From a bacterium (lineage in GTDB: Bacteria; Patescibacteriota; Dojkabacteria; SC72): a stretch of 64,000 nucleotides of DNA. This document shows, piece after piece, positions 3,455 through 46,254 of this stretch. The position numbers and the translations under genes were made by a program. The notes beneath the pieces are model-generated. The model searched no databases and was not told the origin of the DNA. It saw nothing but the letters and a program-made list of their open reading frames with translations. The stretch is taken from NCBI GenBank assembly GCA_021108295.1, contig JAIORF010000005.1, positions 136,531-200,530 of the forward strand. Reading direction: 5' to 3'. Within the stretch, counting starts at the first letter, position 1; every line of letters begins with the position of its first letter.

Positions 3455-4654
3455 GTGCTATCATCTCATATGGACAATGCCCCAAATCCAATACAAAGTG
3501 TGCAGGATGATTTTCTAGTAGAGATAAAAGATCTCCAAAGAAAGATTGATAATGTTAATTTACCACAAGATTTTAGAGAAGATATTCTCAGAGCAATATC
3601 TAGACTTGCTCGTATGGCTAAATATGGGAATTATAGTACAGAATTTGAAACCATAGATAAGTATGTAGATTGGATAACAAGAATACCTTGGGGAAAACTG
3701 TCTATAGACAACTACGATATTGAAAATGCCAAAAAGGAAATGGATTCTACTCACTATGGAATGAACACTATCAAGAACATCATTCTTGACTATCTTGCAG
3801 TAATGCAATTACAAAACAAAGGAATAGCTACTAGTGTGGCAGAGCCTGTGAATTTAGGTCAGAAGGAATTTCCCAACTCTTACAATGTCCCAGCGGTAGC
3901 AGATCATAGAGTAGGTTTAGTAACCAAATCACCTGTACTCCTATTTGTTGGTCTTCAAGGTGTAGGAAAGACATCTATTGCAAAAACAATTGCAATCGCT
4001 ATGGGTAGAAAGTTTGCAAGAATTTCTCTTGGAGCGATAGGGGATGTAAAAACACTCAGAGGTGTACCAAGGTACTCAGAGGGTGCTGAACCCGGACAGA
4101 TTATAAAAGCATTGGTAAGAACAGGTAGTATGAACCCAGTAATATTGCTTGATGAGATAGAAAAGTCTAGTGGACAGCAAAATGTTCTCAACGATGTTAT
4201 GGCTGCTTTATTAGAGATACTAGATCCAGAGCAAAACAAAACATTTGTTGATCATTATGTAGACTATCCTGTAGACCTTTCTAATGTATTCTTTATATGT
4301 ACCGCGAATAATTTAGGGGGTCTTTCTGCTGCACTGCTAGATCGTGTAGAGGTAATTCGTTTCTCTAGTTACTCTGATGAAGAGAAGGGGGTAATTGCAA
4401 GAAATTACATATTGCCGAAGATTCTTAAAGAGACTGGATTAAGTGAACAACATTTACAAATACAAGACAATGTATGGCCATTATTGATAAGGCCTGTAGG
4501 ATTTGATGCAGGTATTAGACAACTAGAAAGAAATATAAATACTTTGGTGAGGACGGTAGCAAGAAAGTTAGTAACAGGATCTCCTATTCCAGTCATTATC
4601 TCTGCTGAAAACCTGAGAGATTTTGTATTGCCAGATCAGGGGCCATTGAGTTAA
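3455..4654 (+). CDS. Lon-family AAA+ ATPase module lacking the N-terminal substrate domain and the C-terminal S16 protease domain
   Basis: Strong match to the Lon ATPase region: 'IPWGK...D...AK..MD..HYGM...K..ILDYLAVMQL', Walker A 'GLQGVGKTSIAKTIAIAMGRKFARISLG...D...LRG', Walker B 'ILLDEIEK', 'LLEILDPEQNKTFVDHY', 'ICTANNL', 'LLDRVEVIRFSSYSDEEK'. The protein ends (…PDQGPLS*) exactly where the protease domain would begin. Confidence 0.7.
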   Translation: MLSSHMDNAPNPIQSVQDDFLVEIKDLQRKIDNVNLPQDFREDILRAISRLARMAKYGNYSTEFETIDKYVDWITRIPWGKLSIDNYDIENAKKEMDSTHYGMNTIKNIILDYLAVMQLQNKGIATSVAEPVNLGQKEFPNSYNVPAVADHRVGLVTKSPVLLFVGLQGVGKTSIAKTIAIAMGRKFARISLGAIGDVKTLRGVPRYSEGAEPGQIIKALVRTGSMNPVILLDEIEKSSGQQNVLNDVMAALLEILDPEQNKTFVDHYVDYPVDLSNVFFICTANNLGGLSAALLDRVEVIRFSSYSDEEKGVIARNYILPKILKETGLSEQHLQIQDNVWPLLIRPVGFDAGIRQLERNINTLVRTVARKLVTGSPIPVIISAENLRDFVLPDQGPLS

Positions 4655-4902
4655 ACTCCTTTGAAGGGATTCATTATACTAAGAGCTCCCATAGCTCTTG
4701 TTGCTTCACTATCCTTCTTCCCGAAGGTTATATCTCTACGTTTCTTTGATCGTGCCTCTGCCTTCTTGAGTGCACCTAAGTCTTTGCCTCGCTGATTTTT
4801 AGATAGGTTTGTAACATCACATTTCTTTGTAACTAAATAGATACTTTCGTTTATAGCAGACTTTGTATTATCCGTCATTATTATTATTGTTAGAATAATC
4901 AA
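4651..4902 (-). CDS. Small hypothetical ORF (83 aa) downstream of and overlapping the VirB4 stop. It may be spurious.
   Basis: ORF only. Hydrophobic N-terminus and basic middle. No homology recognised. Confidence 0.2.
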   Translation of the reverse strand: MIILTIIIMTDNTKSAINESIYLVTKKCDVTNLSKNQRGKDLGALKKAEARSKKRRDITFGKKDSEATRAMGALSIMNPFKGV

Positions 4903-7264
4903 CTACTCCTTGGGGAGTTATATGTTGTCTCCCTTGTTGTAAATCTCTACGACTTCTTACTACCTGACCTGGAAGGGTATTTTCTTCGAGAGTGGTAGTG
5001 AAAGATTTCTCATGAGCATACTTAGCAGGGTTTAATTCTCTCTCCTTCTCTTCTAGTTTTCTACGAACTTCTTCTTCGTAATCCTTCCGTTCTCCCTCGA
5101 TTTGTACTTTGTCATCCTTCCTTCTCTGAGCAGCTCTTGCAATCATAGATTTCTGCTTAGTAATACTGGTACCATCCCTCATTGGTTGTTGAGCAGATGG
5201 TGGAGCAAATACTTTTGCCAATTCTTCAATGGTTCGTGTATCCTTAATCCCTTGTGCTTCTTTCTTTGCCATTTCTTCTAAATCTCTAGGATCAGATGTA
5301 ATTAGCTCGTGTTCTGCTTGGCTTGAGAGTACCTGTATTCCTACATGATTTGAACCAGCAAAGAACAATCCCTGCCCTCTATCGCAATTTAGTAAGAAGT
5401 TTCTCTCACCATCAGAGAGATTAAATACAGCTTGCAGGGTTTCTACTGCAGAGGGACTTTGTTTCATTAGCATTTGTATAGAGGAGTTGGAGATGATGGC
5501 TTTACCCATGTCGTTTTTCATAAAGTCAGCTACATCTTGGGTGATAGTGGTTAGGCCTAGGTAGTATTTTCTTGCCCGTTTTGCCATGGAGTACATAAAT
5601 TTGGCGGAGTCTTCACTTTCCATCATGTACCAAGCTTCATCTACGATTAACAATCGTTGTTTTCTTACTTTTCTAATTCTAGTCCATATAAAGTCTAGCA
5701 TTAGATACATAGCCAATGGTTTTAATTCTTCTTGGAGATCCCTTACACTAAATACTGTGAATGGATTGTTGATTTCAAAGTTACTGGCTTCGTTAAATAT
5801 TCCAGCACCACTTCCTATGATATATTTCTCCATTCGTCTGGCTAAATTGTGAGCTTCATCTTCTGCCATACCTTTCAGTACCTTGTAAAGATCTTCGAGT
5901 AGAGGAGGGTCTTTCTTTTGAGTTCTTGCATCAAATGTAATACCTTTTTCTCTGTAGGTAAGTATGAGTGCCCTATCTAGTATGGAGGATTCGACATTGG
6001 ATAGTCCTTCGAACATGACTTTGAAAAATCCTAGTAGGGAGAGCATCTTCATTCGTAATTCATCGTCATCGTCATCTGCCATGCCTGAGAGTTCAAATGG
6101 ATTCATCTTATGTCCTTGATCCTGAGAGAAGGATATGTATGAGCCTTCTACAGCTTCGGAAAGATCTTCATACTCACGTTCTGGATCTATGATTATTATC
6201 TCTGTACCCATCATTAAGCTTCTTACAGCTTCTAATTTCACAAAGTAGCTTTTACCTGCTCCAGATTTAGCAAAGACTACGGTATTCGCGTTTTCTAATT
6301 CAAATCTATCAAATACGACCAAACTATTATTATGCAGATTAAGACCATACATGATACCGCGGTTCATGGTTAGTTCAGAGGAGACAAATGGGAAGGTAGT
6401 AGCTAAGGATGTAGTATCCATATTGCGTGTAATATGGATTTTGTCTAAGGCAAGTGGTTGTGTACTGATGAAGCCGGGTTCTTGAAGTAGAGTAGCTGAT
6501 TTAGCTGTCACATTCATTGCAGCGAGTGTAGAGGTGATATTTCTAGAGTACTTCTCCAAGAGCTTTTTGTCAGGAGCGTATATTGTTATATACATTGCAA
6601 AGTGGAAGAACTTTTCGCTTCCCTCAGCTATTGAGTCTTGGAGCTGTTGAGCGTCAGAGAGTTTTACTTTGAGAGATGCGTCAATTACTTTTCGGTCTTC
6701 CATTTGACTGTAGAGGGTGGCTTCCATTTCTCCAATTTTTTTCTTAAGCTTTTCCAGTATTATCCTTGAGTCTACAGGGTAGTAAAAGGTACTGATACGG
6801 AGTGAATGTTCGAAGTTAATGATAGGAGAAAGCCAATTTGGTCCTACAAACCTAGGGTAATCACTGATAAAGAAAGTTTTGAAGTAGTAGTCTCCCATTT
6901 GTAGATGGTTGAAATCTACTTCAAGGTCAATGGGTGCTACAATATCTGTTAGTGATAGTCCAGAGAAATCAGCAGTGGGTCTTCGTTGTGCTTCTACTGA
7001 TGGTTCTATTTCAACCTTTGGTTTTTTGGATGTAGGAACAATCTTGTCTAGCATTTTGAATAGGACATTCTTTTTCGTTTCTTTCTTTACTACAGTATCT
7101 TCAAACCTTTCCTTTTGGATGTTGTTAATTTTTGCTTCTTTTACAACATCAACCTCTTGTTGTACTTGGTTTGTGATATCTTGATATTTAGTTAGAGGGT
7201 CAGTATTCATTTGTTCTGTAACCTTAGAATTAATCTGTTTGTTTTTTAATGTTTTATCTTCCAC
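4868..7264 (-). CDS. virB4: VirB4/TraE/TrsE-family type IV secretion (conjugation) ATPase, main body. Starts at a GTG in the ORF track; an alternative ATG is at 7210.
   Basis: Walker A 'VFAKSGAGKSYFVK', 'IIIDPEREY', Walker B-like 'LLIVDEAWYMM', 'GLTTITQDVADF'. The N-proximal 'SLTDIVAPIDLEVDF..MGDYYFKTFFISDYP' continues the VirB4 N-domain. The first ~100 aa are a K/E/Q-rich low-complexity segment. Confidence 0.8.
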   Translation of the reverse strand: MEDKTLKNKQINSKVTEQMNTDPLTKYQDITNQVQQEVDVVKEAKINNIQKERFEDTVVKKETKKNVLFKMLDKIVPTSKKPKVEIEPSVEAQRRPTADFSGLSLTDIVAPIDLEVDFNHLQMGDYYFKTFFISDYPRFVGPNWLSPIINFEHSLRISTFYYPVDSRIILEKLKKKIGEMEATLYSQMEDRKVIDASLKVKLSDAQQLQDSIAEGSEKFFHFAMYITIYAPDKKLLEKYSRNITSTLAAMNVTAKSATLLQEPGFISTQPLALDKIHITRNMDTTSLATTFPFVSSELTMNRGIMYGLNLHNNSLVVFDRFELENANTVVFAKSGAGKSYFVKLEAVRSLMMGTEIIIIDPEREYEDLSEAVEGSYISFSQDQGHKMNPFELSGMADDDDDELRMKMLSLLGFFKVMFEGLSNVESSILDRALILTYREKGITFDARTQKKDPPLLEDLYKVLKGMAEDEAHNLARRMEKYIIGSGAGIFNEASNFEINNPFTVFSVRDLQEELKPLAMYLMLDFIWTRIRKVRKQRLLIVDEAWYMMESEDSAKFMYSMAKRARKYYLGLTTITQDVADFMKNDMGKAIISNSSIQMLMKQSPSAVETLQAVFNLSDGERNFLLNCDRGQGLFFAGSNHVGIQVLSSQAEHELITSDPRDLEEMAKKEAQGIKDTRTIEELAKVFAPPSAQQPMRDGTSITKQKSMIARAAQRRKDDKVQIEGERKDYEEEVRRKLEEKERELNPAKYAHEKSFTTTLEENTLPGQVVRSRRDLQQGRQHITPQGVVDYSNNNNNDG

Positions 7265-7904
7265 TTCTTCCCTCCTCGTCTGGATTATATGTTGTGTAGA
7301 ACTCTGTTATTAGTTCTTGATTGGTTAATTGGTGTCCCATTAGTCCCATTCTCCCTATTTGTTTAATAATGTGGTCTCGTTTAGGGTAGAGAAATATCTT
7401 TGCTTTTTCAAGTAGGTGTTCTTGCTTTACAGCTTTCTGTGCGGTTTGTTCTTCCTTTGTTTTCTTTGCACTAAAAATATTTGCATCTGGCATAATGGCG
7501 GCTGGGTTGTATGGTACGACGAGGTAGAAGTTTTTATCAAGGACATTGTTTTCTACAATTAAGTTTTGTACAAAGAGGGTGTATATATTAAGCATGTTCT
7601 TTAATCCCTCGGACATATTTGTTTGATCTTGATTTCTAAGATGGTCAATGTAGTTAGAAATATCTACTCTTTGTGTTCTGATGAGGATTTGGATATGGAA
7701 GTTAAGGGAGTTGAGTAATCCTGCAAAAGCATAAATCTTATTGTCTTGTTCATACTCTGCCAAAAGATCAAAGTTTATCGCATTGGTTTGTATGACTAGT
7801 GCTACACTACCACTTTTTGTAATGACCAAGTCATCCACAATGTCTCTTATCTCTAAGTGAGTTTGTGTAGATATGGTTGTTCTTGCTCTGTCTTTTGCCT
7901 TCAT
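7254..7904 (-). CDS. VirB4-family N-terminal domain encoded as a separate 216-aa ORF (a split or frameshifted VirB4)
   Basis: 'LEIRDIVDDLVITKSGSVALVIQTNAINFDLLAEYEQDNKIYAFAGLLNSLNFHIQILIRTQRVD' matches the conserved N-terminus of Gram-positive VirB4 proteins (Tn916 Orf16 / PrgJ type). It overlaps the next ORF by 11 nt in a different frame. Confidence 0.6.
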   Translation of the reverse strand: MKAKDRARTTISTQTHLEIRDIVDDLVITKSGSVALVIQTNAINFDLLAEYEQDNKIYAFAGLLNSLNFHIQILIRTQRVDISNYIDHLRNQDQTNMSEGLKNMLNIYTLFVQNLIVENNVLDKNFYLVVPYNPAAIMPDANIFSAKKTKEEQTAQKAVKQEHLLEKAKIFLYPKRDHIIKQIGRMGLMGHQLTNQELITEFYTTYNPDEEGRSGR

Positions 7905-8722
7905 GTAAGTTTCGCTGTTATTTTAATAGGGTTCTTACTTTGTGTATTTTCTAGTATCCATTGAATGTTTGGAATTATGTATGTATTCTGATCAAATTGT
8001 ATGTAGTAAATACCTTGTGGGAGAATGCGGTTGAGTATAAAGTATCCGTTTTGTCCTGTTCTATTTGCGAATATTACTTTCCCATTTTTATCCTTAAGGT
8101 AGACTGGGATATTTGCTAGACCTCGGTTGTTTGTATCGGTCAACCAGATATTTATATTTCCTGGTAATCGGTCTACACTCTTTATCCCAAATTGGTATTT
8201 AGAAATGTTTTGAGGTCCTATGACAACGGTTTGTTGTAGAGGTTTGGATTGTTGCATTGTTGGTTCTGGTTTGGTACTGATTTTTGGAGTTTGTACTTTG
8301 AGAATATCGTCACCAGGTTTTTCAATGAATATCTTTTTCCCTTTTGTTATTTTCCCTCCTACAATCTTTCCTTTGTTCCCGTCATCTGTTTTAACTATTG
8401 GTTTGACTCTTTGACTTTGCATTTGTTCATTTAACCATACTCTCTGTGTAGGTTTATTTATCGCAGTAAAGAAATTCTTTATAAATTCATCTGCTCCTTG
8501 GTCGTTGATTGGGACTAGTGCAAAGAATGCTCCTATGGATGAGAGGATAAGGAATGATGGCCATGCGAGGAGGGCAGGAAGACCTAATTGTTTGTTTAGG
8601 ACAAGGAAAAGTGAACCGCTTACAACACCTGCTGCAAGGTATGCGAATTCTTTGAGTGTAAACCTAGTAAAGAGTTTAAACTCAACATCTAGTACGTTTT
8701 GTGGTATTGGATGTTGTTTCAT
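7901..8722 (-). CDS. PrgI/VirB3-like two-TM membrane protein fused to a C-terminal carboxypeptidase-regulatory-like beta-sandwich domain
   Basis: 'VEFKLFTRFTLKEFAYLAAGVVSGSLFLVL...LLAWPSFLILSSIGAFFALVPINDQGADEFIKNFF' matches the PrgI-family signature that precedes VirB4 in Gram-positive T4SS. The C-terminus 'IWLTDTNNRGLANIPVYLKDKNGKVIFANRTGQNGYFIL' is CarbopepD_reg-like. Confidence 0.55.
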   Translation of the reverse strand: MKQHPIPQNVLDVEFKLFTRFTLKEFAYLAAGVVSGSLFLVLNKQLGLPALLAWPSFLILSSIGAFFALVPINDQGADEFIKNFFTAINKPTQRVWLNEQMQSQRVKPIVKTDDGNKGKIVGGKITKGKKIFIEKPGDDILKVQTPKISTKPEPTMQQSKPLQQTVVIGPQNISKYQFGIKSVDRLPGNINIWLTDTNNRGLANIPVYLKDKNGKVIFANRTGQNGYFILNRILPQGIYYIQFDQNTYIIPNIQWILENTQSKNPIKITAKLT

Positions 8723-8773: not shown

Positions 8774-9583
8774 TTGTTCTATTATATATACATGGATAAA
8801 AACAGTAAGAGTGAGTTGTTACATATAGAGGAGTTGTATGACTTTAGGAAGAATATTCCAGCATATCTTAGTAAGCAGAAGATAAAAGAGGTATGGGGTT
8901 TAGAGGTAGATGGAGAGAGGTACAAGGGGATTAGTGATAAGCAGAGGAATATTATATTGAAGAAGGTTTGTATATTAGAGGATTCATTGTCATGGGTTCT
9001 ATTTAGACCCTTTGTTCGATTTGTTGGGATATCTGGATCAATTGCATCTGAATTTGTAAAGGGAGGAGATGATATAGATCTGTTTATTGTGACTAGGAAT
9101 GATGTGGTTTGGATATATAGGCTGTTTTTGTATGTTAGAAATGTATTTGAGAGGAGGGTTAGGTTAAAAAGACGGGTGTTAAAAGTGAAGGATAAATTGT
9201 GTATTAATTTTTTAACAGAGGAGAGGAATTTGGTATTTGAGGAGGATATTTTTAATTTAAATGAGTTATTGTTTCTAAAGCCTATTTTTAATAAAGACTT
9301 TTTAAGTGTAATCTTTCTTCAAAACAATTGGTTGAAAGAGAGGTTTCTTGTTTCAGAATCTTTCTTAAAGAAAGGAAATATTAGAATGGGTATGTTAAGG
9401 AGACTTACTAAAAGGAATTATTTGTTATTTTTAATTAATCTTTTTTGTTTCTGTGGTCAGTTATCATTTATGTTACTAATGAGGCATAGGCCTGATGTGG
9501 GGAGGTTGTTTAGGGGGTTTAGGGAAGGGAGAATAGAGTTCTTTCCTAGTGATTTCAAAAAGAAGATATTGAGTAAGGGTTAG
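8774..9583 (+). CDS. Hypothetical protein with a pol-beta-type nucleotidyltransferase-fold motif
   Basis: 'GISGSIASEFVKGGDDIDLFIV' fits the GS-x(n)-DxD signature of minimal NTases. No further assignment. Confidence 0.35.
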   Translation: MFYYIYMDKNSKSELLHIEELYDFRKNIPAYLSKQKIKEVWGLEVDGERYKGISDKQRNIILKKVCILEDSLSWVLFRPFVRFVGISGSIASEFVKGGDDIDLFIVTRNDVVWIYRLFLYVRNVFERRVRLKRRVLKVKDKLCINFLTEERNLVFEEDIFNLNELLFLKPIFNKDFLSVIFLQNNWLKERFLVSESFLKKGNIRMGMLRRLTKRNYLLFLINLFCFCGQLSFMLLMRHRPDVGRLFRGFREGRIEFFPSDFKKKILSKG

Positions 9584-12523: not shown

Positions 12524-13090
12524 TTACCTAATTCCTATTTTCATCTCAAACTCTTCACTAAACTGTACACCAACCAGACTCTCTATAGTTAGGTATATAT
12601 CGTATGTAGCTCTTGGTTTAAGTAGTATCTCTACGCTCTCTGATTGGCCCGTACTGTGTTGTAATGTATATACTTGATCATTTATTATCAACCCAATCTC
12701 TGACCGTGTAGGATTGAGCGTAGTGCCAAGGAAGGTCAAAATCTTTTCTTCGTCTGTATTGTTACCAATTTGTAATATTGGTTTGGAGTAAAAGTCTGAT
12801 TCTCTTTGTGTAAGCATTGCGTTGTATATATATCCACTATCTCCATTCTTAGATATTTTCTCTACACTTAAGACCTCGTGTGTACCACCTACTAGATCTA
12901 CAATGACTTTGGAATTGGTGGCTACGCCTAATACATCTGTAAACTCTCTAATGTTTTTAGTAATTGGTTCTAGATTAATTACAGTAAGTGTTGGGATTAT
13001 GAAGAGCAGTGCAAGTACACCAAGAGCAATTGGCTCAAGGAATTTACCTAGAAGGTTTCTGACTTTCGATTGCTTGTTTTTTGTTATCAT
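12524..13090 (-). CDS. Hypothetical membrane-anchored protein (N-terminal TM, beta-rich ectodomain)
   Basis: Hydrophobic segment 'PIALGVLALLFIIPTLTVI'. No homology recognised. Confidence 0.4.
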   Translation of the reverse strand: MITKNKQSKVRNLLGKFLEPIALGVLALLFIIPTLTVINLEPITKNIREFTDVLGVATNSKVIVDLVGGTHEVLSVEKISKNGDSGYIYNAMLTQRESDFYSKPILQIGNNTDEEKILTFLGTTLNPTRSEIGLIINDQVYTLQHSTGQSESVEILLKPRATYDIYLTIESLVGVQFSEEFEMKIGIR

Positions 13091-13092
13091 TT

Positions 13093-13593: not shown

Positions 13594-13618
13594 TAGGACT
13601 GCTGGAAGTAGTGAGAGT

Positions 13619-36503: not shown

Positions 36504-36818
36504 ATGTTTGAAACAATACCATCAATATATTGGATGATCCTTATAGGAGTACCTGCAGGATTCTTTACATTCATACTCTACCAATTAGGTATGGTTACTA
36601 AGGATATGAGAGGGGTAGTACAAAATAGTACTAAGATATTGGAAGAATCAAACAAGACATTGATTAAAACAAATGTAATATTAGATGATGTCCAAGCAAT
36701 TGTAAGTACTACTAAAGGGACTGTAGAAGAAGTAAATCAGGCAGTTATAGTACCTGTTAGACAAATATCAGGACTATTATCCAAACTCACGGCATTTCTC
36801 TCTGGAATAAAGAAATAA
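36504..36818 (+). CDS. Small membrane protein (104 aa; N-terminal TM pair, coiled-coil C-terminus, DUF948-like)
   Basis: 'IYWMILIGVPAGFFTFILYQLGMV'. First gene of a seven-gene same-strand cluster. Confidence 0.4.
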   Translation: MFETIPSIYWMILIGVPAGFFTFILYQLGMVTKDMRGVVQNSTKILEESNKTLIKTNVILDDVQAIVSTTKGTVEEVNQAVIVPVRQISGLLSKLTAFLSGIKK

Positions 36819-36907
36819 TAGTTGTTTTTTATGAACATAAAGAGGAACAGATGTATCTAAGGAGTTTTCCCATTGTCTAATAGAAATAATAAATGTAATA
36901 TAGAGTC

Positions 36908-38524
36908 ATGTATATAACTCCATACCAAAAGAAACAGCTAACTACAATCTTCATACTAGTACTAGGAATACCACTAACCCTCTTCGCCATATACACTGGA
37001 GCACAATGGTTTACAAGTGCAGGAGCGAACACCCAACCCAAAGATGTGATACTAGCTAATTTGACAACTAACTCTGTTGTAGTAACTTGGACTACAAGCG
37101 ATGAAGTAATAGGATCAGTAATCCCTGTACTAAATGGTACAGAGGGCAGCCCAGTAATAGACAAGAGAGGAAGTGGGAAAAGAAATACCCACTACGTTGA
37201 GATTAAAAGTTTGGAACCAGGTACAGAATATGATTTTAAGATAATATCAGGAGAAGATACCTATGTAGATGTGGGTGGTACAGAGTTCGAATTTTCTACA
37301 GCCAACATTAGTGCAGATATTCCAACCCCTACCCCTGTACACGGAATACTCGCAGATATTAGTGATGACGATGCATTGATATATATTCTCCCTAAAGACA
37401 AAACAACATACCCTGCAGCAACAGTACCATCAAGTAATGGGAACTGGTTGGTAGATCTCTCATCATTAAGAAGAATTGAAGATAAAAGTATGTATACAGT
37501 ATTAGAATCAACGGATTTAGTGGTAATAGGAGTCTCAAGTATTGGGAATGCAGGTGTTGTAGAAGGACAGTATGGAATAATATTTGATTCTAGTAAAAAA
37601 TTAACAGAAACGCTTGTTTCTTCAGGGACACAATATGACATATATATATCTGAAGATACAAAGCTAGTAGCTACGGAAGACAAAGAAGAGGAACCTACTG
37701 TAGTAGTGGATAAAGAGAATGAAACACCATATGTACCACCTGTTGTTGTAGAACAAGAGGTTGAAGAAACTTTTGATAAAGAGTATGAACTTAAAAACGA
37801 TCTAATTTGGACTAATTTAGTGTCCAGTGAAGGTGTAGTGCCTACGCAACCAGACGAATATGGAACAGATAGTGTAATGGTAACAAATCTTACCGATGTT
37901 GGCTGTTCTATCATATGGTTCTCCCAAGAATCTCAACAAGGTCATGTGATGTCCGGGACTTCTATATCAGAGCTATCGGACAAAGGGAGAGATGAAAGAG
38001 ATGGCATAGCGTCACAGGGAGAATATTTCTTACACAGTATTGAAATTACACAACTACAACCAGAAACAACATACTACTTTGAAATATACTCAGGAGAAGA
38101 AACATATGAGTATGAAGGGGAAATAACTACCTTTGCTACACAGTCTAGTCCTCCACAATTCGAAACTATTGTAGGAACTCTAGAAGTAGACGATTACAAA
38201 AATGCCCTTGTTGTTGCAACCTTCGTAGATAATGATGGTATTGGATCTAAAGGTACAAGCCACCCAATCTCTACTCTGGTAGATAGTGAGGGCTCTTGGA
38301 TTTTGACAATTGGTGGAGCAAGGGACAGTGAAGGTGAGTATTTTGACAAGAGTAATGATGACAAAGTTAACCTAAGTTCTAAGTATTTTACAAATTCTTC
38401 AGCTACTGAGATGACCATTGGAGAAGCCACTTCTGAAGAAATAGGGATTTCAACTTCTAGCTCAAGTGATTTGGCGTTTAGTATAATCCCATCACTTTCT
38501 GACTACGGTGTTCTTGTAGATTAA
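36908..38524 (+). CDS. Surface protein with an N-terminal signal anchor and two FN3-like (PAP-N-type) domains
   Basis: TM 'LTTIFILVLGIPLTLFAIY'. 'VVVTWTTSDEVIGSV....HYVEIKSLEPGTEYDFKI' and a second 'VTNLTDVGCSIIWFS.....HSIEITQLQPETTYYFEIYSG'. Confidence 0.5.
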   Translation: MYITPYQKKQLTTIFILVLGIPLTLFAIYTGAQWFTSAGANTQPKDVILANLTTNSVVVTWTTSDEVIGSVIPVLNGTEGSPVIDKRGSGKRNTHYVEIKSLEPGTEYDFKIISGEDTYVDVGGTEFEFSTANISADIPTPTPVHGILADISDDDALIYILPKDKTTYPAATVPSSNGNWLVDLSSLRRIEDKSMYTVLESTDLVVIGVSSIGNAGVVEGQYGIIFDSSKKLTETLVSSGTQYDIYISEDTKLVATEDKEEEPTVVVDKENETPYVPPVVVEQEVEETFDKEYELKNDLIWTNLVSSEGVVPTQPDEYGTDSVMVTNLTDVGCSIIWFSQESQQGHVMSGTSISELSDKGRDERDGIASQGEYFLHSIEITQLQPETTYYFEIYSGEETYEYEGEITTFATQSSPPQFETIVGTLEVDDYKNALVVATFVDNDGIGSKGTSHPISTLVDSEGSWILTIGGARDSEGEYFDKSNDDKVNLSSKYFTNSSATEMTIGEATSEEIGISTSSSSDLAFSIIPSLSDYGVLVD

Positions 38525-38562
38525 CCCATTGAATACATCTTTCTTTCAATGTATATTGTACT

Positions 38563-39915
38563 ATGTCGAAGAAATTGTATAGAAGAAAACCCATACTCTT
38601 TTTAGTAGCTCTAATTCTGTTTGGGATTTTTGTTGTAAATATAACTCAAGATATTACTAATATCCAAGCTGACACACAGGAATTTGTACTAAGTGAGAAG
38701 GTAGAAGCCAACGAAGGAGATTGTAACTTAGAACAAGATATATTCTTTGAGATAGACGAAAACTTTAAACCGATTAGAGAAGTTCAACCTGGAATGGTCT
38801 TGTATGAACAAGATGTGTTGGGAACAGAGTGTGTAACTCCACGTTACAGCTACTCTTCCGAGAAAATATGTTCTAGGACTACATCCTTTGATACGAATAT
38901 GGGTAAGAAAGAAGGTTTGCTTACAGTCGATACAATGATTGAGAGAGATTCATCTATTTCTCTTACGAGTATTCAAGTACCACCATTGTTAAATGGTTCA
39001 CCTACTATGGATAGCTCTGTTAGACAGATATTTACTGAAAAAGAGGGTGCTGAACATTGGACACTAAAACCTGCAGGAGAGATGGTTAATAAAGAGGTGG
39101 TTGCTGGGAATGCATATCCAGGAGATACTCAGACACAAGAGAGGATAGAGGATGCTGAGGAATCTAAAACCAAGTCTTTTGGTATCACTTACTCTGTCGA
39201 AGGGGGCTCCAATGCAGAAGGATCAGGTAAAAATGAATTCTCTATTTCAACCTACCAAACTAATGACTGTGGAGCAGAGTGTAGAAACTACTCTAATCCT
39301 ACTCCAGAGAAGTATCTTTCTAGTGCACAGATATTAGGACAGTCTCAAAACTATCCCGGTTACTACGACAATGTTCCAGAACAGCAGGATGAGAGTATTA
39401 ATAATTGTGATACGAATACTACATTTCTTAAAATGGATTTAGATACAGAGATGAAGGGCTGTACTCCAAGTCTTAAGCAAGTTGTAATGTCGTTTTTTAA
39501 GAGGATTACAAGTCTTTTTGAAGCAGACAAATGTTCTAATCAAGGAGAATCAAGTGAGGCTTGTATAAGTACTGCGAGTATTGTTATCATTATGGAATCT
39601 CCTTGGGGTAGTAAGGAGGATTGTGCTGATGGAGCGTGTGTTACAGAGTTTAATGAGCTTAGAAATGGAGGATTTTCAATTCCAAGTAGTGATGCTTCAA
39701 GCAGGATTTATGTTTTGACAGATTGCTATGCAAATATTGAAGGACAGAGTAATGTTCTTCTTTCATGTGCTTGGGATATGGACTATATTACTCAAGAATT
39801 AGAATTTCAGTCACATGACAATATACCTCAGGAGGTATTTCCTGATAGAATGGATTATATTAATTTTCATGTGTGGGAGAGTGAGCGTAGAACAGATGGT
39901 GTGTATGAGATGTAA
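38563..39915 (+). CDS. Secreted Cys-rich hypothetical protein (450 aa)
   Basis: N-terminal TM/signal 'ILFLVALILFGIFVV'. Many paired Cys. No homology recognised. Confidence 0.45.
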   Translation: MSKKLYRRKPILFLVALILFGIFVVNITQDITNIQADTQEFVLSEKVEANEGDCNLEQDIFFEIDENFKPIREVQPGMVLYEQDVLGTECVTPRYSYSSEKICSRTTSFDTNMGKKEGLLTVDTMIERDSSISLTSIQVPPLLNGSPTMDSSVRQIFTEKEGAEHWTLKPAGEMVNKEVVAGNAYPGDTQTQERIEDAEESKTKSFGITYSVEGGSNAEGSGKNEFSISTYQTNDCGAECRNYSNPTPEKYLSSAQILGQSQNYPGYYDNVPEQQDESINNCDTNTTFLKMDLDTEMKGCTPSLKQVVMSFFKRITSLFEADKCSNQGESSEACISTASIVIIMESPWGSKEDCADGACVTEFNELRNGGFSIPSSDASSRIYVLTDCYANIEGQSNVLLSCAWDMDYITQELEFQSHDNIPQEVFPDRMDYINFHVWESERRTDGVYEM

Positions 39916-39939
39916 TATTTAATATTTTTAACTACATAA

Positions 39940-41346
39940 ATGAAGAGATTTAATAAAGACTTATTTTGGTCTGTATTGGTAATTGTTATGTTTTTTCTTT
40001 CGACCAACATATATGCTCAGGAAGGAATAGACTTGGGAGCATCTTACGAAGCTACTGTAGAGGCGGTGAATGCAGGACAAGGCGCAGAGAAGGATGAGTA
40101 CAATTCTGCAAGATCACAGGCTGTAAGTGCTAATACGGCAGTTGTAAATGCGATCATTTACTTAGCACCTGAAGTCTCTTCAACATATCAAACAATGTTG
40201 GATTCAGAGACACTTCCACAAGATATGAAACGAGGTATCTATGGTATGACTGCTGATGGTGTATATACCATGTATGAGTCACAACCTCTTGTGAATGTTT
40301 ATGCACATCTGGCAGAGGAATGGGTGCCTGGTTATCAATCAACTACTTCGGTATATGCGGATTTCTCAACAGGTCCATATGATTCAGGATATGATGAGCT
40401 AGTGAATTCCGGTATTAGTGGTTTGTGGTCACAGGTCAGAAATATTACTTATGTAATCTTTATCCTAATCATGATAGTTGTTGGTTTTATGATTATGTTT
40501 AGGAGTAAATTAGATGGTCAGACATTAGTCTCTCTTGGAAATACATTACCAAATATTATTCTTGCTTTAATAGGGGTCACCTTTAGTTTTGCGATAGCGG
40601 GGTTGATAATAGATATTGGAGGAGTATTAATGGTAGTTCTAATTAATATATTTGATGTAAGTAGTGGCTATGATCAATTCATAACTCTCGAAAGTATTGG
40701 TGCATTATTTGGGGCTGTTGTCCCTCAAGGGATGGTTCAAGATGCCTCATCCTTTATTGCTGAACGAGGCATTGTAGGCAGAGGTCTCTTGGCAGTTGTT
40801 GGAGCAACCCTTGCCCCAGCTGCTGGTCTTGTAGCTTTATTACCAACATTAGTGATTTTAGGTGTTATGACTGTAGGGGTAATTAAAGTCTTCATAACTT
40901 TAATTAAGGCATATGTAGGTATTATAATAAATGTTATTACAGGGCCGTTCCAAATTGCAATGTCAGCGATTCCGGGTCAAAATGCAAGCTTCATCAATTG
41001 GGTGAAAAGTGTTATGAGAAATGTATTGGTATATCCAATTGTGTTTGCGATTTTAAACCTTCCTGGGATTATATATTCTTTGGCTGGAGAGGGAGGAATA
41101 TCTCTTCCTGGTCCGGATAAACTTACTCTGACTCAAAGTCCTGGTCAATTGAACCAAGAAATTGGTTTTGTATCGGGAGCATTAGTCTTCATATTGCAAA
41201 TCTTTGTACTTTTCGCAGCTTCCAAAGCAGATGCGTACGCTAATGCGATATTACCTCCAACATCATCAAAGGCTAGTGGAGATGCAGCTCTAGCTGCAAA
41301 GCAAGCTTTATCTGGAATACCTCTAATTGGGAAATTAATAAAGTAA
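39940..41346 (+). CDS. Polytopic membrane protein (signal peptide, ~150-aa ectodomain, 6-8 TM); VirB6/TrbL-like in architecture
   Basis: Signal 'VLVIVMFFLSTNIYAQEG'. The C-terminal half has successive hydrophobic helices with Gly/Ala/Pro-rich loops. Assigned by architecture, not by motifs. Confidence 0.4.
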   Translation: MKRFNKDLFWSVLVIVMFFLSTNIYAQEGIDLGASYEATVEAVNAGQGAEKDEYNSARSQAVSANTAVVNAIIYLAPEVSSTYQTMLDSETLPQDMKRGIYGMTADGVYTMYESQPLVNVYAHLAEEWVPGYQSTTSVYADFSTGPYDSGYDELVNSGISGLWSQVRNITYVIFILIMIVVGFMIMFRSKLDGQTLVSLGNTLPNIILALIGVTFSFAIAGLIIDIGGVLMVVLINIFDVSSGYDQFITLESIGALFGAVVPQGMVQDASSFIAERGIVGRGLLAVVGATLAPAAGLVALLPTLVILGVMTVGVIKVFITLIKAYVGIIINVITGPFQIAMSAIPGQNASFINWVKSVMRNVLVYPIVFAILNLPGIIYSLAGEGGISLPGPDKLTLTQSPGQLNQEIGFVSGALVFILQIFVLFAASKADAYANAILPPTSSKASGDAALAAKQALSGIPLIGKLIK

Positions 41347-41356
41347 TTAGAAATAT

Positions 41357-44134
41357 ATGGCTGGATATAAAGGCAAGAGTGAAACAATATCATCTGTATC
41401 AGATATTCTAGGTTTTATCCTAGAACAGTCTGAACTACCACCAGAGAAAAGAAGACCAGTAAGACCACCACAGACTGCAGATAGTCAAGCAAGTTCTGAA
41501 TATGCACAGACATTAGTGGATGCACTTGCTATGCCAGGAACGTTTGTAGGAGAAAAGTATCTCGAGACTGTTGAAGGGCTTGTAAGTCCAACTATTGCAA
41601 TAGGGACACAGACTGGTCGTATACCTAATGTCAAGATAACGGCTAGTGCATTACCAGAGTTTTTTGAAAATCCTGATGAGTTTGTAGATAAATTGTTCCA
41701 GAAGAACAAAGACATATCTAAGATGCAGAAAATTAGATGGGCAGGTGAACAGATGAGGGTATTGGCAGGTAGTACATATGCTAAGAAAATGGGTTTATTC
41801 GATGACTATGGAGATCTTAAATCTACTCTTGAAAGAGGTCTAGGACAGGTTGCAATGGACTCTGGGAATGAAAGAGATAAGCAGTGGATTACAAAAGCAT
41901 CAATAGATATCAAGGAGCATGGGATGGTAAATAGTGTTAGTGTTAAAGATTTGGAAAGGAGGAAGAAAGTAGCGCATAGTATAAAGGGGAAAGAGCGTAT
42001 TCAAGGACAAATTGAAGCGTTGTCATTTAAGCACGGCAGTGAGGAAGAAGCGAAGAAGGATCAGGACATTGGAACATTTAGGTCTCTCTTGGGTTTAGAG
42101 TTTGATGAGCGAAGAATTAAGATTCTCGATGGAAGGGATCTTAAAGATCTCGATTCTAAAGAACTAGATTCTTTTAAGAAGGTCCAAAGTGCTTCAAACA
42201 CACTGTCTTTATGGTCTGGATATGAAAAATTAGACCATAGAGGTATGAAGGATAAGTGGTCTAATATTAGAGAGCAGAGAAAAGAGATTTCCGATATAAA
42301 GCAAGGGTTTGGTGATCGATTGAAGGCAATCAAGAATGGGACAACAATCACTCTTGACGACGGCAATACGATTGATTATGGAAAGTTGTCATCCTCAGAT
42401 AGGCAGAAAGAAAAAGCATATATTAGCAAGAATCTCAAACAATTAAGTACAACAGAAAGATCTCTAACTAGTGTATATCTTTGGAGTAAAATAGGCCAGG
42501 CTGAGGGGGTATATCATGGTCTCAAGCAGACTTTTGGTCCTGGAGGTGTTGAAGCTTTCTTGAATGGAGATTTCTTTGATCCAAATAAGGGTTTCTTTGG
42601 ATGTCCTTCTGCAAAAGGGAAGTTTAGAGGAGTAGAGTTTGTTACGTCTAAAAGTACAAAATATAAGAAAGAGAAAGGTGGGAAATATAAAGCGACCCTT
42701 ACGGACACATACAATGATACCATGGTGCGGCTATACTACCTCAATCCAACAACCTGGATGAAAACTGCTTTTAACGGTTCAGGCTTTGCCTGGATAGCAG
42801 AAAACCGTGAGGTGTCTTTAGCCAAGATGTGGGGTGTTAAAGAAAGTAGAATTTTTAAAGACTTACAGAAGCCTGAATTTTGGGCATTCTATAAGAGATA
42901 TAAGGATCTTGATCCTACAAAACAAACCTTAATGCTTGATAGAGATCCTAAATATAAAGCCCTACTAGGATATATTAGCAAAGGATTAGGAGAAAAGGCA
43001 TTTGCCAAGAAATTTAAACAAGCAGAGAAAATATTCAAGAGCTTAGAAAGGTTTTCAGGATTGTCAAGATTCTTTAGTACTCCAACAAGAATACGTGATT
43101 ATATTGTGGAGGGAACTATTGGGAAAGTACAAAAAGGTTTTAGGAATAATGCGTATAGGGTTTTGTCTAAAATGAAAATCTTTACAAATTCTGAAGCTGC
43201 CAAATCTCTGTTGAGAACTTGGAAGGCAACAGGAGGATCCTCTCTTTCAGCAGCAATTGCTCAAGGTATTTTGACTGCTCTAGGTGCAGCAAGTAGTGTA
43301 GTTGCAGGACCTTTAGGTGTAGCTTTAACATTGGCAGTATCGGTTATTCTAGAAAAAGTTGCCAAAGTATCAATCAAAGTATTTATTTATGCTTTTATAG
43401 GAATCTTTGGTGCAATAATATTACTAGGAGCTTCAATAGAGTTTGGTAGCAGAGCACAAGTAGACTCATACTCTAGAGAAATCCCAGGTACGATATATGA
43501 GAATCCAAACTTTGGTGGATATGGAGGTTTTTACTCTGGATGGTTTAGTGGTGGTGGAGGGAATTTTGTTCCTCCTCCTATAAATATCCCTGCACCAACA
43601 AACTCTTCCTGTCCACTCGGGGATGTTAAATATCGTTGCTCTCAAGGATTTACTCGTACAGTATGTTCGCACAAGAATATTACACATAAATACCCAGTAG
43701 ACCTGACAGGCTTCTCGTTCTTCTATGCCCCACAATACTGTGACACATCCACTTGTACTGCAAGTCTGTCAAGCATGGCCGCATGGCGATGTAGTGACGG
43801 TAGTTTTACTGGACGAAACATAGAGTTTAGTGATGGACAAGGAAATGTTTTCAATCTAATGCATACAAAACTAATATCACCAGGTAATGGACGCAACTAC
43901 AAAGCAGGTGAGCCAGTCGCATATATCTACCAATATGCAGCCGAAATGGTTGCTGATGATCCACTAGGGATTACTAAGCCTAATAAGAATGGAGTCTTCT
44001 ACTGTTGGACAGGAGCCCATATACACCTTACAATTACACATAATGGTCAGTACATTGACCCTATTGCATTCTTAGTTGAAATGGGATGTACAAATGGAGC
44101 CCAATCAGAGTCTGAATGTCCTCCATGTAAGTAA
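41357..44134 (+). CDS. 925-aa membrane-spanning protein: ~630-aa cytoplasmic N-domain, TM hairpin, Gly-rich linker, extracellular Cys-rich M23 (LytM)-like metallopeptidase domain
   Basis: TMs 'VVAGPLGVALTLAVSVIL' and 'VFIYAFIGIFGAIILLGASI'. Linker 'GGYGGFYSGWFSGGGGNFVPPP'. C-terminus 'HKYPVDLTG...' and 'YCWTGAHIHLTITHNGQYIDPIAFL' (M23 HxH). Confidence 0.5.
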   Translation: MAGYKGKSETISSVSDILGFILEQSELPPEKRRPVRPPQTADSQASSEYAQTLVDALAMPGTFVGEKYLETVEGLVSPTIAIGTQTGRIPNVKITASALPEFFENPDEFVDKLFQKNKDISKMQKIRWAGEQMRVLAGSTYAKKMGLFDDYGDLKSTLERGLGQVAMDSGNERDKQWITKASIDIKEHGMVNSVSVKDLERRKKVAHSIKGKERIQGQIEALSFKHGSEEEAKKDQDIGTFRSLLGLEFDERRIKILDGRDLKDLDSKELDSFKKVQSASNTLSLWSGYEKLDHRGMKDKWSNIREQRKEISDIKQGFGDRLKAIKNGTTITLDDGNTIDYGKLSSSDRQKEKAYISKNLKQLSTTERSLTSVYLWSKIGQAEGVYHGLKQTFGPGGVEAFLNGDFFDPNKGFFGCPSAKGKFRGVEFVTSKSTKYKKEKGGKYKATLTDTYNDTMVRLYYLNPTTWMKTAFNGSGFAWIAENREVSLAKMWGVKESRIFKDLQKPEFWAFYKRYKDLDPTKQTLMLDRDPKYKALLGYISKGLGEKAFAKKFKQAEKIFKSLERFSGLSRFFSTPTRIRDYIVEGTIGKVQKGFRNNAYRVLSKMKIFTNSEAAKSLLRTWKATGGSSLSAAIAQGILTALGAASSVVAGPLGVALTLAVSVILEKVAKVSIKVFIYAFIGIFGAIILLGASIEFGSRAQVDSYSREIPGTIYENPNFGGYGGFYSGWFSGGGGNFVPPPINIPAPTNSSCPLGDVKYRCSQGFTRTVCSHKNITHKYPVDLTGFSFFYAPQYCDTSTCTASLSSMAAWRCSDGSFTGRNIEFSDGQGNVFNLMHTKLISPGNGRNYKAGEPVAYIYQYAAEMVADDPLGITKPNKNGVFYCWTGAHIHLTITHNGQYIDPIAFLVEMGCTNGAQSESECPPCK

Positions 44135-44142
44135 TACAAATT

Positions 44143-45084
44143 ATGAACAAAAAAACACTTAAAATTTTAATAATAGTAACTGTAGGAATGATACTCCTTA
44201 TAGGAGCATTCCTCATATACTCCTTACTCCAGCCAAAAGCATTAGAAGGTGAATTGATAGATACGAATCCATACCTCAATGACAATACCGAATACAATTT
44301 GAGTATAGAAGCAACAATTGAAACGAAAGACTCTCCTCTCTATATATGCAAATCCAATACAATACCAGAATATTTAGATTCTTTCGCGTCGAAAATTGAT
44401 AATGGCTTGCAAAAAACATCTGATATGAATTTTGTAACATGGGGGAAAGACGGAGAGGTAATAGTGAGATATGATATAGATACAACAGTACTCATGATTA
44501 ATTTATCCCAGTACCCAGAAGCGATGAGATTTAACTCAATAGAAGACTTTATAATTACCTACCTAGATCCTACAATTAAATATGTAGACCCAATTATAGA
44601 CGAAGGAGAAGGGTTTAAAATGTATAGAGTAAATAGAATTATAGACGAGCAAGAAATAAAGACGGGCTCAGGTAGTTCGGACTATTTCTATACCGAAAAA
44701 GGATACCTTAAGACTGCAAGAGTACTACTAGCGCAAATAGAGAAATCTGAATTTATAGCCCCTATGATAGAGGACATAGCTCTTTTAGAGCGATATCTCT
44801 CTTCTCCACAATATCCTAAAATGATAACAATAGATACAACTGGAGTGATAACTTCTGATGAATTCACCTACGAAACCATGGATGTTGAGATAGAATATGA
44901 GAAATGTTCTATCAATAAAATTGAGCCAGTTCTTTACTTTGTCAATTGCAATCAGAACTTCCTGTACTACTCCTACGAAATCTCAGGAGTATGTGATGTT
45001 GAATATGAAAAAGGACTCTTTAGTGTACCTTTTGTAGGATTCATGAACGCAATAGACCCTGAATATGTCAAAAGTGGAGAATAG
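44143..45084 (+). CDS. Membrane-anchored hypothetical protein (313 aa, N-terminal TM)
   Basis: 'ILIIVTVGMILLIGAFLIYSLL', then a soluble domain. Gram-positive VirB8-like proteins have a comparable layout, but no motif supports that. Confidence 0.35.
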   Translation: MNKKTLKILIIVTVGMILLIGAFLIYSLLQPKALEGELIDTNPYLNDNTEYNLSIEATIETKDSPLYICKSNTIPEYLDSFASKIDNGLQKTSDMNFVTWGKDGEVIVRYDIDTTVLMINLSQYPEAMRFNSIEDFIITYLDPTIKYVDPIIDEGEGFKMYRVNRIIDEQEIKTGSGSSDYFYTEKGYLKTARVLLAQIEKSEFIAPMIEDIALLERYLSSPQYPKMITIDTTGVITSDEFTYETMDVEIEYEKCSINKIEPVLYFVNCNQNFLYYSYEISGVCDVEYEKGLFSVPFVGFMNAIDPEYVKSGE

Positions 45085-46254
45085 TTGGTACAATGTAGTA
45101 TGAAAATAAAAAATCTTTTACTAACAATCTTCTTTTTAACAATATTCATCACCCCAATACTAGGATATACCGACTCACACACAGATTTTGATACCTCGCT
45201 AGTGGCTGGTATACAGTATCAATATAGCCAACCAACTAAAATTCTCTTTACCCAAATAGAAGGTAGCTATGAATCTCTAAATCTAAGTACACAAGACTAC
45301 CTCGATGTAATATATTACTACTCAATTACAAAACTTAAACTAGGAAATATCCCATTCCACTATGCAATTGATGAAAACGGAGATGTTTTCAGTACACAGA
45401 ATGTAGATGCTCTTAAGCTTACGGATGAACAATATATTGTAATTGCCTACCTTTCGAATAATCCTCAAGTAAGTAATAAGGCAAGAAATTCCATTCTAGA
45501 AGTTGCAAATGACCTCTCCTACAAATATGGGATTACCCAATATGACACTTACTCTTACAATATTGTAGAAACTGAAGACATACTCTCAAAACTTGAACTA
45601 GTAGATCCTAATAATCTCTTTTTTACATCAATTGACGACAGTTTGGAAGAATGGGAAATAAGTGAAAGAGAGCATCTAGATTACGAAGCTGAGATTGAGA
45701 ATATAGAGTATGAAGAAAGTGTAGAGATAGGGAATACACTACAAGTTAAAGTAACAGTTAAGAATGGAAATGACTTTGTATGGCTTTCTGACAAATACCC
45801 AATATATATATCAGTAAAAGATTCTCGGGAAAGTATATACGCACTAAATGGAGAATGGGATAGTTTTAGCAAACCTGTACACATATCCTCTGATAGATAT
45901 GTACTACCAGGAGAGAGTATAGAGATGACATTTAAACTAGATCCTAAAGTATTACCAGGGAAAAATGCAGAAGCATTTGAGATTCATAAGTTTGCAAAAG
46001 AAGTGTTTTTAGAATCTGAATTTGTAGTGGAATTTACTGTAGTAAAGGGAGACAACACATTGGTGAAAATGGTGTCTCCAGAATTCGGATTTGTAAATAT
46101 AAGGGAATGTAGATGGTATAGCTGTGAGAAAATTGAAGTAGCAAATGATGGAGAAGTTTACATTGTAGTAAAAGAAGAAGAAGGATGGTATCAAATTCTC
46201 TTTGGACAGGACAAAGAAGGGTGGGTATACGGTAAGTATGCCAAAGAAATTTAG
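45085..46254 (+). CDS. Secreted hypothetical protein with a C-terminal SH3b-like domain
   Basis: Signal 'LLLTIFFLTIFITPILGYT'. C-terminus 'GEVYIVVKEEEGWYQILFGQDKEGWVYGKYAKEI'. Confidence 0.4.
   Translation: MVQCSMKIKNLLLTIFFLTIFITPILGYTDSHTDFDTSLVAGIQYQYSQPTKILFTQIEGSYESLNLSTQDYLDVIYYYSITKLKLGNIPFHYAIDENGDVFSTQNVDALKLTDEQYIVIAYLSNNPQVSNKARNSILEVANDLSYKYGITQYDTYSYNIVETEDILSKLELVDPNNLFFTSIDDSLEEWEISEREHLDYEAEIENIEYEESVEIGNTLQVKVTVKNGNDFVWLSDKYPIYISVKDSRESIYALNGEWDSFSKPVHISSDRYVLPGESIEMTFKLDPKVLPGKNAEAFEIHKFAKEVFLESEFVVEFTVVKGDNTLVKMVSPEFGFVNIRECRWYSCEKIEVANDGEVYIVVKEEEGWYQILFGQDKEGWVYGKYAKEI

Follow-up and report, generated by a model that had tools for sequence, protein, structure and literature searches.

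A chromosomal PrgI–TrsD–VirB4 core of a Patescibacteria-type secretion system in Dojkabacteria and a candidate partner operon

Gene content of the locus

A 64-kb stretch of a Dojkabacteria chromosome (the window, to which all positions refer) carries on its minus strand, from 8722 down to 4651, a tight operon of four abutting and translationally coupled genes. They encode a PrgI/VirB3-like membrane protein, a TrsD-like protein, an ATPase of the VirB4 family, and a small basic protein (Table 1). The first three are read here as the energising core of a type IV secretion system (T4SS) of the kind described in Patescibacteria. The open reading frame (ORF) positions that a first-pass annotation had given for these three genes agree exactly with the ORF calls.

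The stop codon of prgI and the start codon of trsD overlap by 4 nt, and the trsD and virB4 ORFs overlap by 11 nt. The GTG start of virB4 is preceded by GGAGG; public gene calls take the downstream ATG. The fourth ORF, of 75 aa, overlaps the stop codon of virB4 by 11 nt. Its product is without a transmembrane (TM) segment, public assemblies have it annotated as a gene, and it is kept in 18 Dojkabacteria loci with 38-86% identity. A family search with this product gave no match. This ORF is likely to be the fourth gene of the T4SS operon and is uncharacterised. The GC content at the operon (0.37-0.39) is within the range of the window and no anomaly is seen. Between 4.3 and 9.1 kb, promoter-like sites are fewer than in shuffled sequences (9 compared to a shuffle mean of 14.4), and terminator-like sites are more frequent (7 compared to 2.9), none of them at an operon boundary.

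Table 1. Positions of the T4SS genes and of the candidate partner locus in the window
Feature	Position	Strand	Product and basis
PrgI/VirB3-like membrane protein	7901..8722	-	273 aa; Pfam PrgI, two-TM
TrsD-like protein, free-standing homologue of the VirB4 N-terminal domain	7254..7904	-	216 aa; NCBIfam TrsD
VirB4-family ATPase	4868..7264	-	798 aa from GTG, 780 aa from ATG at 7210; CD1110
Conserved small basic ORF	4651..4878	-	75 aa; 83 aa from TTG at 4902
Lon-like AAA+ gene	3455-4654	+	Flank beyond the 75-aa ORF
Seven-gene envelope operon, candidate partner locus	36504..46254	+	Family matches, topology
Candidate VirB6-like polytopic membrane protein	39940..41346	+	468 aa: signal peptide, ectodomain of ~160 aa, ~6 TM helices
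Membrane protein with divergent C-terminal M23 (LytM-type) peptidase-like domain	41357..44134	+	925 aa; 3 TM helices, residues 632-694

The VirB4 ATPase and the TrsD-like protein

The 798-aa protein passes the cut-off of the NCBIfam model conju_CD1110 (NF045971) with 394 bits against 325, and the alignment covers profile positions 182-734 of 752. In Pfam it matches P-loop_TraG (95.8 bits against 25.8) and AAA_10 as well as, weakly, TraC_F_IV and CagE_TrbE_VirB. When models of the VirB4 family are ranked by score, CD1110 (394 bits) is followed by the VirB4 of Mycoplasma integrative and conjugative elements (ICE; 284), F-type TraC (201), VirB4_CagE (121), CedB (61), and TrbE (27). With CD1110 and the Mycoplasma model at the top, this ranking favours a monoderm-type VirB4. 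The sole sequence relative in PDB is 4AG5, the C-terminal domain of VirB4 from Thermoanaerobacter pseudethanolicus (E 8e-48).

As the first-pass annotation had recognised, the ATPase motifs are intact. Walker A reads SGAGKS (residues 334-339, nt 6248-6265) and Walker B reads LLIVDEAW (residues 538-545, nt 5630-5653); across 42 homologues the G, GKS and DEAW residues do not vary. Both ends of the protein (residues 1 to ~100 and ~660 to 798) are charged extensions that are not conserved. Note that this polypeptide is without a VirB4 N-terminal domain of its own, since the CD1110 alignment begins only at profile position 182.

The region corresponding to this domain is found in the preceding gene. 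The 216-aa protein matches positions 98-234 of VirB4_plasma, the profile of Mycoplasma VirB4 (E 3e-6), and the 798-aa protein continues the same profile at 230-893. The earlier statement that both ORFs jointly make up a complete VirB4 is thus correct in terms of homology. They are, however, two genuine genes, trsD and virB4, which exist as separate ORFs in all 45 related loci that hold both. Among these loci the junction varies from an overlap of 125 nt to a gap of 4 nt, with two different frame offsets, which shows that the two-gene arrangement is stable and is neither due to a sequencing error nor a pseudogene.

The 216-aa protein scores 33.2 bits (E 4e-8) with the NCBIfam model of TrsD/TraD (NF041427), whose curated cut-off is 200. 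Since the E value is significant and the score is below the cut-off, the protein is regarded as a distant homologue of TrsD and not as a member of the family as NCBIfam defines it. The orthologues give the same picture, 20 of 20 matching both TrsD and the N-terminal region of VirB4_plasma. The precomputed Pfam label of the protein is PF26593 (TraC-like), a weak match. An AlphaFold2 (AF2) model obtained from a shallow alignment is poor (pLDDT 53.9). Its top Foldseek matches are TrwK/VirB4 with non-significant E values and, because of the low pLDDT, can be taken as suggestive only. A profile of the TrsD-like orthologues compared with PDB sequences gave a single chance match.

The PrgI/VirB3-like anchor and its C-terminal domain

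The first-pass annotation had described the product of prgI as a two-TM protein whose N-terminal 90 aa fit PrgI. Pfam PrgI (PF12666) indeed covers residues 5-92 (nt 8447-8710) with 26.4 bits and an E value of 1e-5, the gathering score being 27. All 23 orthologues from related loci match PrgI at E≤0.01 (best E 1.4e-11), and the orthologue of L039, a locus from outside Dojkabacteria, scores 37.5 bits. Two hydrophobic helices, at residues ~27-44 (nt ~8591-8644) and ~49-71 (nt ~8510-8578), are found in all orthologues. The gene lies directly upstream of the virB4 module, and this order, also noted earlier, is the same in every locus that holds both genes.

These proteins are not the small single-domain form of PrgI (about 90-120 aa). 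Their lengths are 263-587 aa, and all orthologues examined share a common plan, in which the PrgI hairpin is followed by a variable linker of 100-430 aa and a C-terminal domain of ~80 aa. The linker is rich in K or in Q/S/P depending on the orthologue and is K-rich in the window. The C-terminal domain matches CarboxypepD_reg, SdrD_B, or EMC7, which are all models of β-sandwich domains. In the window copy, the β-sandwich (CarboxypepD_reg/SdrD_B-like) is at residues 194-248 (nt 7979-8143, minus strand). CarboxypepD_reg is matched by 9 of the 23 orthologues (best E 4.6e-7), and the β-sandwich is conserved in Dojkabacteria, Levybacteria, and other Patescibacteria (the window copy and the orthologues of loci L030-L047).

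The segment that follows the second TM helix has a net charge of +6, and the orthologues examined have no third TM segment. The positive-inside rule therefore predicts a cytoplasmic β-sandwich domain, as does the analogy with VirB3–VirB4 fusions. The accessible parts of two studies on T4SS in these bacteria (PMC12102498, PMC10633639) contain no mention of such a domain that we could find.

Conservation and genomic context

A scan of one genome per species yielded 47 related loci. By their titles, most are from Dojkabacteria/WS6, a few are from Levybacteria or unclassified Patescibacteria, and some are given only as 'bacterium'. Many are labelled Saccharibacteria although they share the synteny of Dojkabacteria. 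Some of the contigs bearing the locus are longer than 700 kb, nearly a whole genome.

On one side the operon is flanked by the Lon-like gene beyond the 75-aa ORF, and on the other by a nucleotidyltransferase (NTase)-like gene, recF, and lepA. In Dojkabacteria the order g13093–g12524–lepA–recF–(NTase)–prgI–trsD–virB4–(small ORF)–(Lon-like)–cysteine desulfurase–dCTP deaminase holds down to ~60% VirB4 identity. At VirB4 identities of 60-89%, the operon keeps its slot between recF and the Lon-like gene throughout Dojkabacteria. The prgI–trsD–virB4 trio is also found in Levybacteria and other Patescibacteria.

In 18 loci all six marker genes are present, and there the median identities to the window are 76.0% for LepA, 72.6% for VirB4, 70.2% for TrsD, 64.2% for the Lon-like protein, 53.9% for RecF, and 48.6% for PrgI. 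The values for VirB4 and TrsD are near that of LepA; thus the ATPase pair is conserved like a translation factor. Strong purifying selection acts on all four genes of the operon.

The rest of the window consists of housekeeping genes (alaS, nusA, infB, pnp, fusA, tuf, a ribosomal-protein operon, and others) together with genes for surface proteins and a sortase. When every ORF of at least 150 aa in the window was scanned with Pfam, no relaxase, type IV coupling protein (T4CP), or integrase family was matched. Outside the antisense shadows of larger genes, the window has no small two-TM pilin-like ORF. The absence of a relaxase, VirD4, or pilin gene, stated earlier for the immediate neighbourhood, thus extends, at the scope of these two scans, to the whole window.

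The NTase-like gene (8774-9583, plus strand) lies divergently upstream of prgI. Its 269-aa product has a weak match to Polβ-type nucleotidyltransferases and one C-terminal hydrophobic segment, and is found at the same position in most Dojkabacteria loci with 30-75% identity. Upstream of lepA (12524-13743, minus strand), two conserved membrane proteins of 188 aa with one TM segment and 216 aa with four are syntenic across Dojkabacteria; no family was detected for either. The window's only mobile-element-like gene encodes an IS200-like Y1 transposase (26189-26689, minus strand; Pfam Y1_Tnp, 34 bits) and is 17 kb away from the T4SS genes.

Comparison with known systems

In a search of 3,035 Patescibacteria genomes, Quiñonero-Coronel et al. 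(2025) found VirB4 in 2,417 (PMC12102498). Nearly all of these proteins (2,425 of 2,474) form one clade nested in MPF_FATA, and this clade is present in 2,407 of the 3,035 genomes. TrsD is the commonest neighbour of virB4 and PrgI/VirB3 is common, while VirB6 and VirB2-like pilins are variable. Relaxases are almost absent (103 of 3,035 genomes). The supplementary genome table lists Dojkabacteria genomes as VirB4-positive (all PMC12102498). In Southlakia epibionticum, Wang et al. (2023) showed by transposon sequencing that the T4SS cluster (SEML1_0006-0019) is essential (PMC10633639). That system has a Gram-positive-like composition and an essential pilin array, and is without a recognisable coupling protein or relaxase (PMC10633639). 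Peptidase and lysozyme genes that adjoin virB4 in Southlakia are essential as well (PMC12102498).

Like these systems, the locus in the window is chromosomal, has PrgI/VirB3, TrsD, and VirB4 genes side by side, and comes with no relaxase (PMC12102498, PMC10633639). It further shares with the Patescibacteria clade a monoderm-type, MPF_FATA-like VirB4, an associated peptidase/hydrolase (here a candidate), and conservation throughout a class. PrgI–TrsD–VirB4 without relaxase is the already described Patescibacteria-clade T4SS, and the locus is therefore an instance of a described system (PMC12102498, PMC10633639). There are differences. Compared to the Patescibacteria-clade T4SS and that of Southlakia, no VirB2-like pilin array and no recognisable VirB6 gene are found beside virB4, and the neighbours are lepA and recF instead of dnaA and dnaN. 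Candidate VirB6-like and M23 genes are ~30 kb away in a separate operon. Finally, PrgI has a C-terminal β-sandwich, for which no mention was found in the accessible accounts of the Patescibacteria-clade system.

Among conjugation systems, the order of VirB3-like, TrsD, and VirB4 genes is that of TrsC–TrsD–TrsE in staphylococcal pGO1/pSK41 (TraC–TraD–TraE in pIP501). The pGO1/pSK41 type is the only classical MPF_FATA subclass with TrsD (PMC12102498). These are, however, plasmid conjugation operons with a relaxase, T4CP, VirB1-like hydrolase, and VirB8-like proteins, which is not so here. Also unlike pGO1/pSK41, the TrsD match in the window is 33 bits where 200 is the cut-off, and the best VirB4 model is CD1110 and not one of the Trs/Tra family.

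A PrgI-family two-TM protein directly upstream of a VirB4 module is also found in PrgI–PrgJ of Enterococcus pCF10 and with CD1110-type VirB4 of Clostridioides, and like the VirB4 of Clostridioides conjugative transposons the window protein passes the CD1110 equivalog cut-off. In pCF10 and Clostridioides, however, VirB4 is one polypeptide that includes the N-terminal domain, PrgI has ~100 aa, and the genes belong to mobile elements. An architectural template for the parts is offered by the inner-membrane complex of R388, TrwM(VirB3)–TrwK(VirB4)–TrwI(VirB6) (PDB 7O3J, 7O41, 8RT9), although R388 is a diderm system with an outer-membrane core. In Foldseek, R388 TrwK is the best match of the TrsD model, and R388 TrwI is that of the modelled 468-aa protein described below; the E values are non-significant (0.04-0.3) and one of the two models is of low confidence.

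A candidate partner operon

Between 36.5 and 46.3 kb lies an operon whose products are envelope proteins only, three of them without a detectable family. Its seven genes encode a DUF948-like protein (104 aa), an fn3/PAP_N surface protein, a secreted 450-aa protein, the VirB6-like protein, the M23-like protein, a 313-aa protein with a TM anchor, and an SH3_3 protein. The gene order is kept in L051, a distant Dojkabacterium. The first-pass annotation had referred to this operon in connection with the T4SS genes, and this link has gained some support, which comes from structural matches, from synteny in L039, and from an M23 orthologue in L051.

The AF2 model of the 468-aa protein has a pLDDT of 74.6, and its top five Foldseek matches in PDB are all TrwI/VirB6 of R388. 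The E values of these matches are 0.05-0.28, which is not significant, with probabilities of 0.82-1.0 and TMt (the TM-score normalised to the target) of 0.36-0.47; because of these E values and TMt the likeness is suggestive only. The protein has no sequence or profile match in Pfam, NCBIfam, or PDB, and no profile link to VirB6/TrbL. Single-sequence and profile searches in a set of 5.8 billion proteins detected 148 relatives, all unannotated and, where a source is named, mostly from Dojkabacteria. The non-Dojkabacteria genome L039 has a clear homologue (E 3e-41 with a hidden Markov model, HMM) at a distance of 5.6 kb on the upstream side of prgI–trsD–virB4; on the downstream side, past virB4, comes a gene for an M23 peptidase.

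The 925-aa protein aligns end to end with its L051 orthologue (E 3e-33), with the H..D and HxH motifs conserved, and this orthologue passes the gathering score of Pfam Peptidase_M23 (30.3 against 28.7). The 925-aa protein may be a cell-wall hydrolase and an analogue of VirB1. An M23-like gene in the partner operon fits the essential peptidase and lysozyme genes by virB4 published for Southlakia (PMC12102498). Pairwise BLASTP found no similarity between the 925-aa protein and either the M23 peptidase or a 667-aa protein of L039, and tblastn of the other proteins of the operon against the related loci gave no matches.

The operon may be the missing part of the T4SS. On evidence that is weak to moderate, it is the probable source of a VirB6-like channel protein and of an M23 hydrolase; for the claim that it provides both channel and hydrolase of this very T4SS, we would put the chances at about even.

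Proposed function and alternative explanations

Taken together, the locus is best explained, with a probability of roughly 0.85, as the cytoplasmic-membrane energising core of a chromosomal, vertically inherited, MPF_FATA-derived T4SS of the Patescibacteria clade. Profile ranking, synteny, the lack of mobile-element genes, and the literature agree in this with the first-pass annotation, which had proposed a Gram-positive-type PrgI/VirB4 core in a candidate phyla radiation (CPR) genome, outside a conjugative element. Its remark that VirB4/PrgI pairs without a full conjugative element occur in CPR genomes, with a suggested role in uptake or host interaction, matches the published accounts (PMC12102498, PMC10633639).

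A mechanism can be proposed by comparison with the R388 inner-membrane complex and with Gram-positive T4SS biology. In the R388 structure VirB3 tethers VirB4. PrgI would in the same way tether the TrsD–VirB4 assembly to the membrane, and the TrsD-like protein would supply the N-terminal domain of VirB4 as a separate polypeptide. ATP hydrolysis by VirB4 would drive the assembly of a channel or fibre and the passage of substrate through the VirB6-like polytopic protein, whose gene is probably the one 30 kb away, at 39.9-41.3 kb. The adjoining membrane-anchored M23 hydrolase, with fn3/SH3 surface proteins beside it, would open the peptidoglycan. Such a machine would serve the epibiont–host interface and not self-transfer, either by exporting effectors or by importing host nucleic acids or nutrients.

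Several points weigh against this reading. The PrgI copy in the window is 0.6 bits short of the Pfam gathering score, the TrsD-like protein is far below the NCBIfam cut-off, and a VirB8-like component was not identified. As to the partner operon, the TrwI/VirB6 matches are not significant, L039 is the single syntenic example for the 468-aa protein (an HMM search against all fetched loci found only L039), and the M23-like domain of the 925-aa protein itself has no Pfam match. Since 64 kb of the genome were inspected, a T4CP, relaxase, or pilin array, or divergent pilins, may lie elsewhere; VirD4-like genes are reported in most Patescibacteria genomes, usually far from virB4 (PMC12102498). Finally, the experiments on the T4SS requirement for epibiotic growth cover Southlakia epibionticum (PMC10633639) and no Dojkabacterium; for the locus in the window, the LepA-like conservation lends indirect support to such a requirement.

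According to one review the role of the T4SS is 'completely unknown' (PMC11665869), and reviews speculate on effector delivery or nucleotide uptake (PMC11665869, PMC12857230). One possibility is that the system is not an effector exporter and is instead a dedicated importer of nucleic acids, like archaeal Ced or ComB of H. pylori, which supplies an epibiont auxotrophic for nucleotides with DNA or RNA of its host. The window has neither relaxase nor T4CP, and its VirB4 has a weak match to CedB (61 bits). Reviews propose nucleotide uptake by the T4SS since comEC is dispensable in Southlakia (PMC11665869), and a 2026 preprint on a cultivated relative describes feeding on host RNA and possible T4SS pili (10.64898/2026.06.21.733656). 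The CedB score is, however, far under the cut-off of 700 and reflects mere general VirB4 homology, and no CedA, CedA1, CedA2, or ComB-specific components were detected. Import is thus considered rather unlikely as the dedicated function. It is a sub-hypothesis on the substrate and is compatible with a Patescibacteria-clade T4SS as the best explanation.

A more elaborate variant would be a pilus-less, bipartite T4SS in Dojkabacteria, in which the motor at 4.6-8.7 kb works with the channel, hydrolase, and surface proteins of 36.5-46.3 kb, the PrgI β-sandwich acts as a lineage-specific adaptor for substrate or regulators, and host nucleic acids are imported in place of an export of effectors. As a combination of all these parts it is improbable.

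Still less probable is that the genes are part of a functional conjugative element, derived from an ICE or a plasmid, whose relaxase, T4CP, and mating-pair genes are beyond the window. The best-known members of the VirB4, PrgI, and TrsD families come from conjugative elements of Firmicutes, and the 64-kb coverage and the distant VirD4-like genes mentioned above also leave room for it. A mobile element, however, would not hold the fixed slot between recF and the Lon-like gene across Dojkabacteria. VirB4 diverges in step with LepA, the window is without integrase, relaxase, T4CP, or compositional shift, and relaxases are found in so few Patescibacteria genomes. A remnant of an ICE or plasmid was likewise ruled out by synteny, composition, and the lack of mobility genes in the window.

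The reading of the 216-aa and 798-aa ORFs as pieces of a decaying, non-functional VirB4 broken by a frameshift, to which adjacent ORFs in different frames jointly covering one VirB4 profile with an overlap of 11 nt might point, is effectively refuted by the conserved split with its varying junctions and offsets, and also has against it the GGAGG before the downstream start, the high conservation of both halves with invariant catalytic motifs, and the fact that TrsD plus VirB4 is the norm in Patescibacteria and pGO1-type plasmids (PMC12102498).

Patescibacteria are ultrasmall bacteria, and few machines are known to be essential to their life as epibionts; the T4SS is one of these. We know of no cultivated member of Dojkabacteria. 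The window adds one more instance to a system catalogued in more than 2,400 genomes and leaves the general picture unchanged. Its PrgI–TrsD–VirB4 core is a clean and well-conserved example; the window also gives evidence that the remaining T4SS parts in Dojkabacteria may be encoded at a distance, and shows a VirB3-like anchor that bears an extra conserved domain. The distant partner operon and the C-terminal domain of PrgI are leads for structural modelling and not discoveries.

Other features of the window

The orientation of genes flips at ~26.7 kb, with the minus strand used from 4.6 to 26.7 kb and the plus strand from 26.8 to 63 kb. At the same point the AT skew changes sign and the GC skew is positive on both sides, without a clear signature of a replication origin.

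Large surface proteins with DUF11 repeats or Big_7 are encoded on the minus strand at 14770-16491, 22157-24019, and 25385-26179. The protein at 14770-16491 has a sorting signal of the sortase type at its end, IPQTG and then a TM segment, and a sortase gene is nearby. These proteins are possible adhesins for host contact. On the plus strand at 14007-14796 are genes for two small TM-anchored proteins (133 and 131 aa) with weak matches to Ig-like He_PIG and fn3-like PAP_N. They resemble the fn3/PAP_N protein at 36.9 kb in the candidate partner operon.

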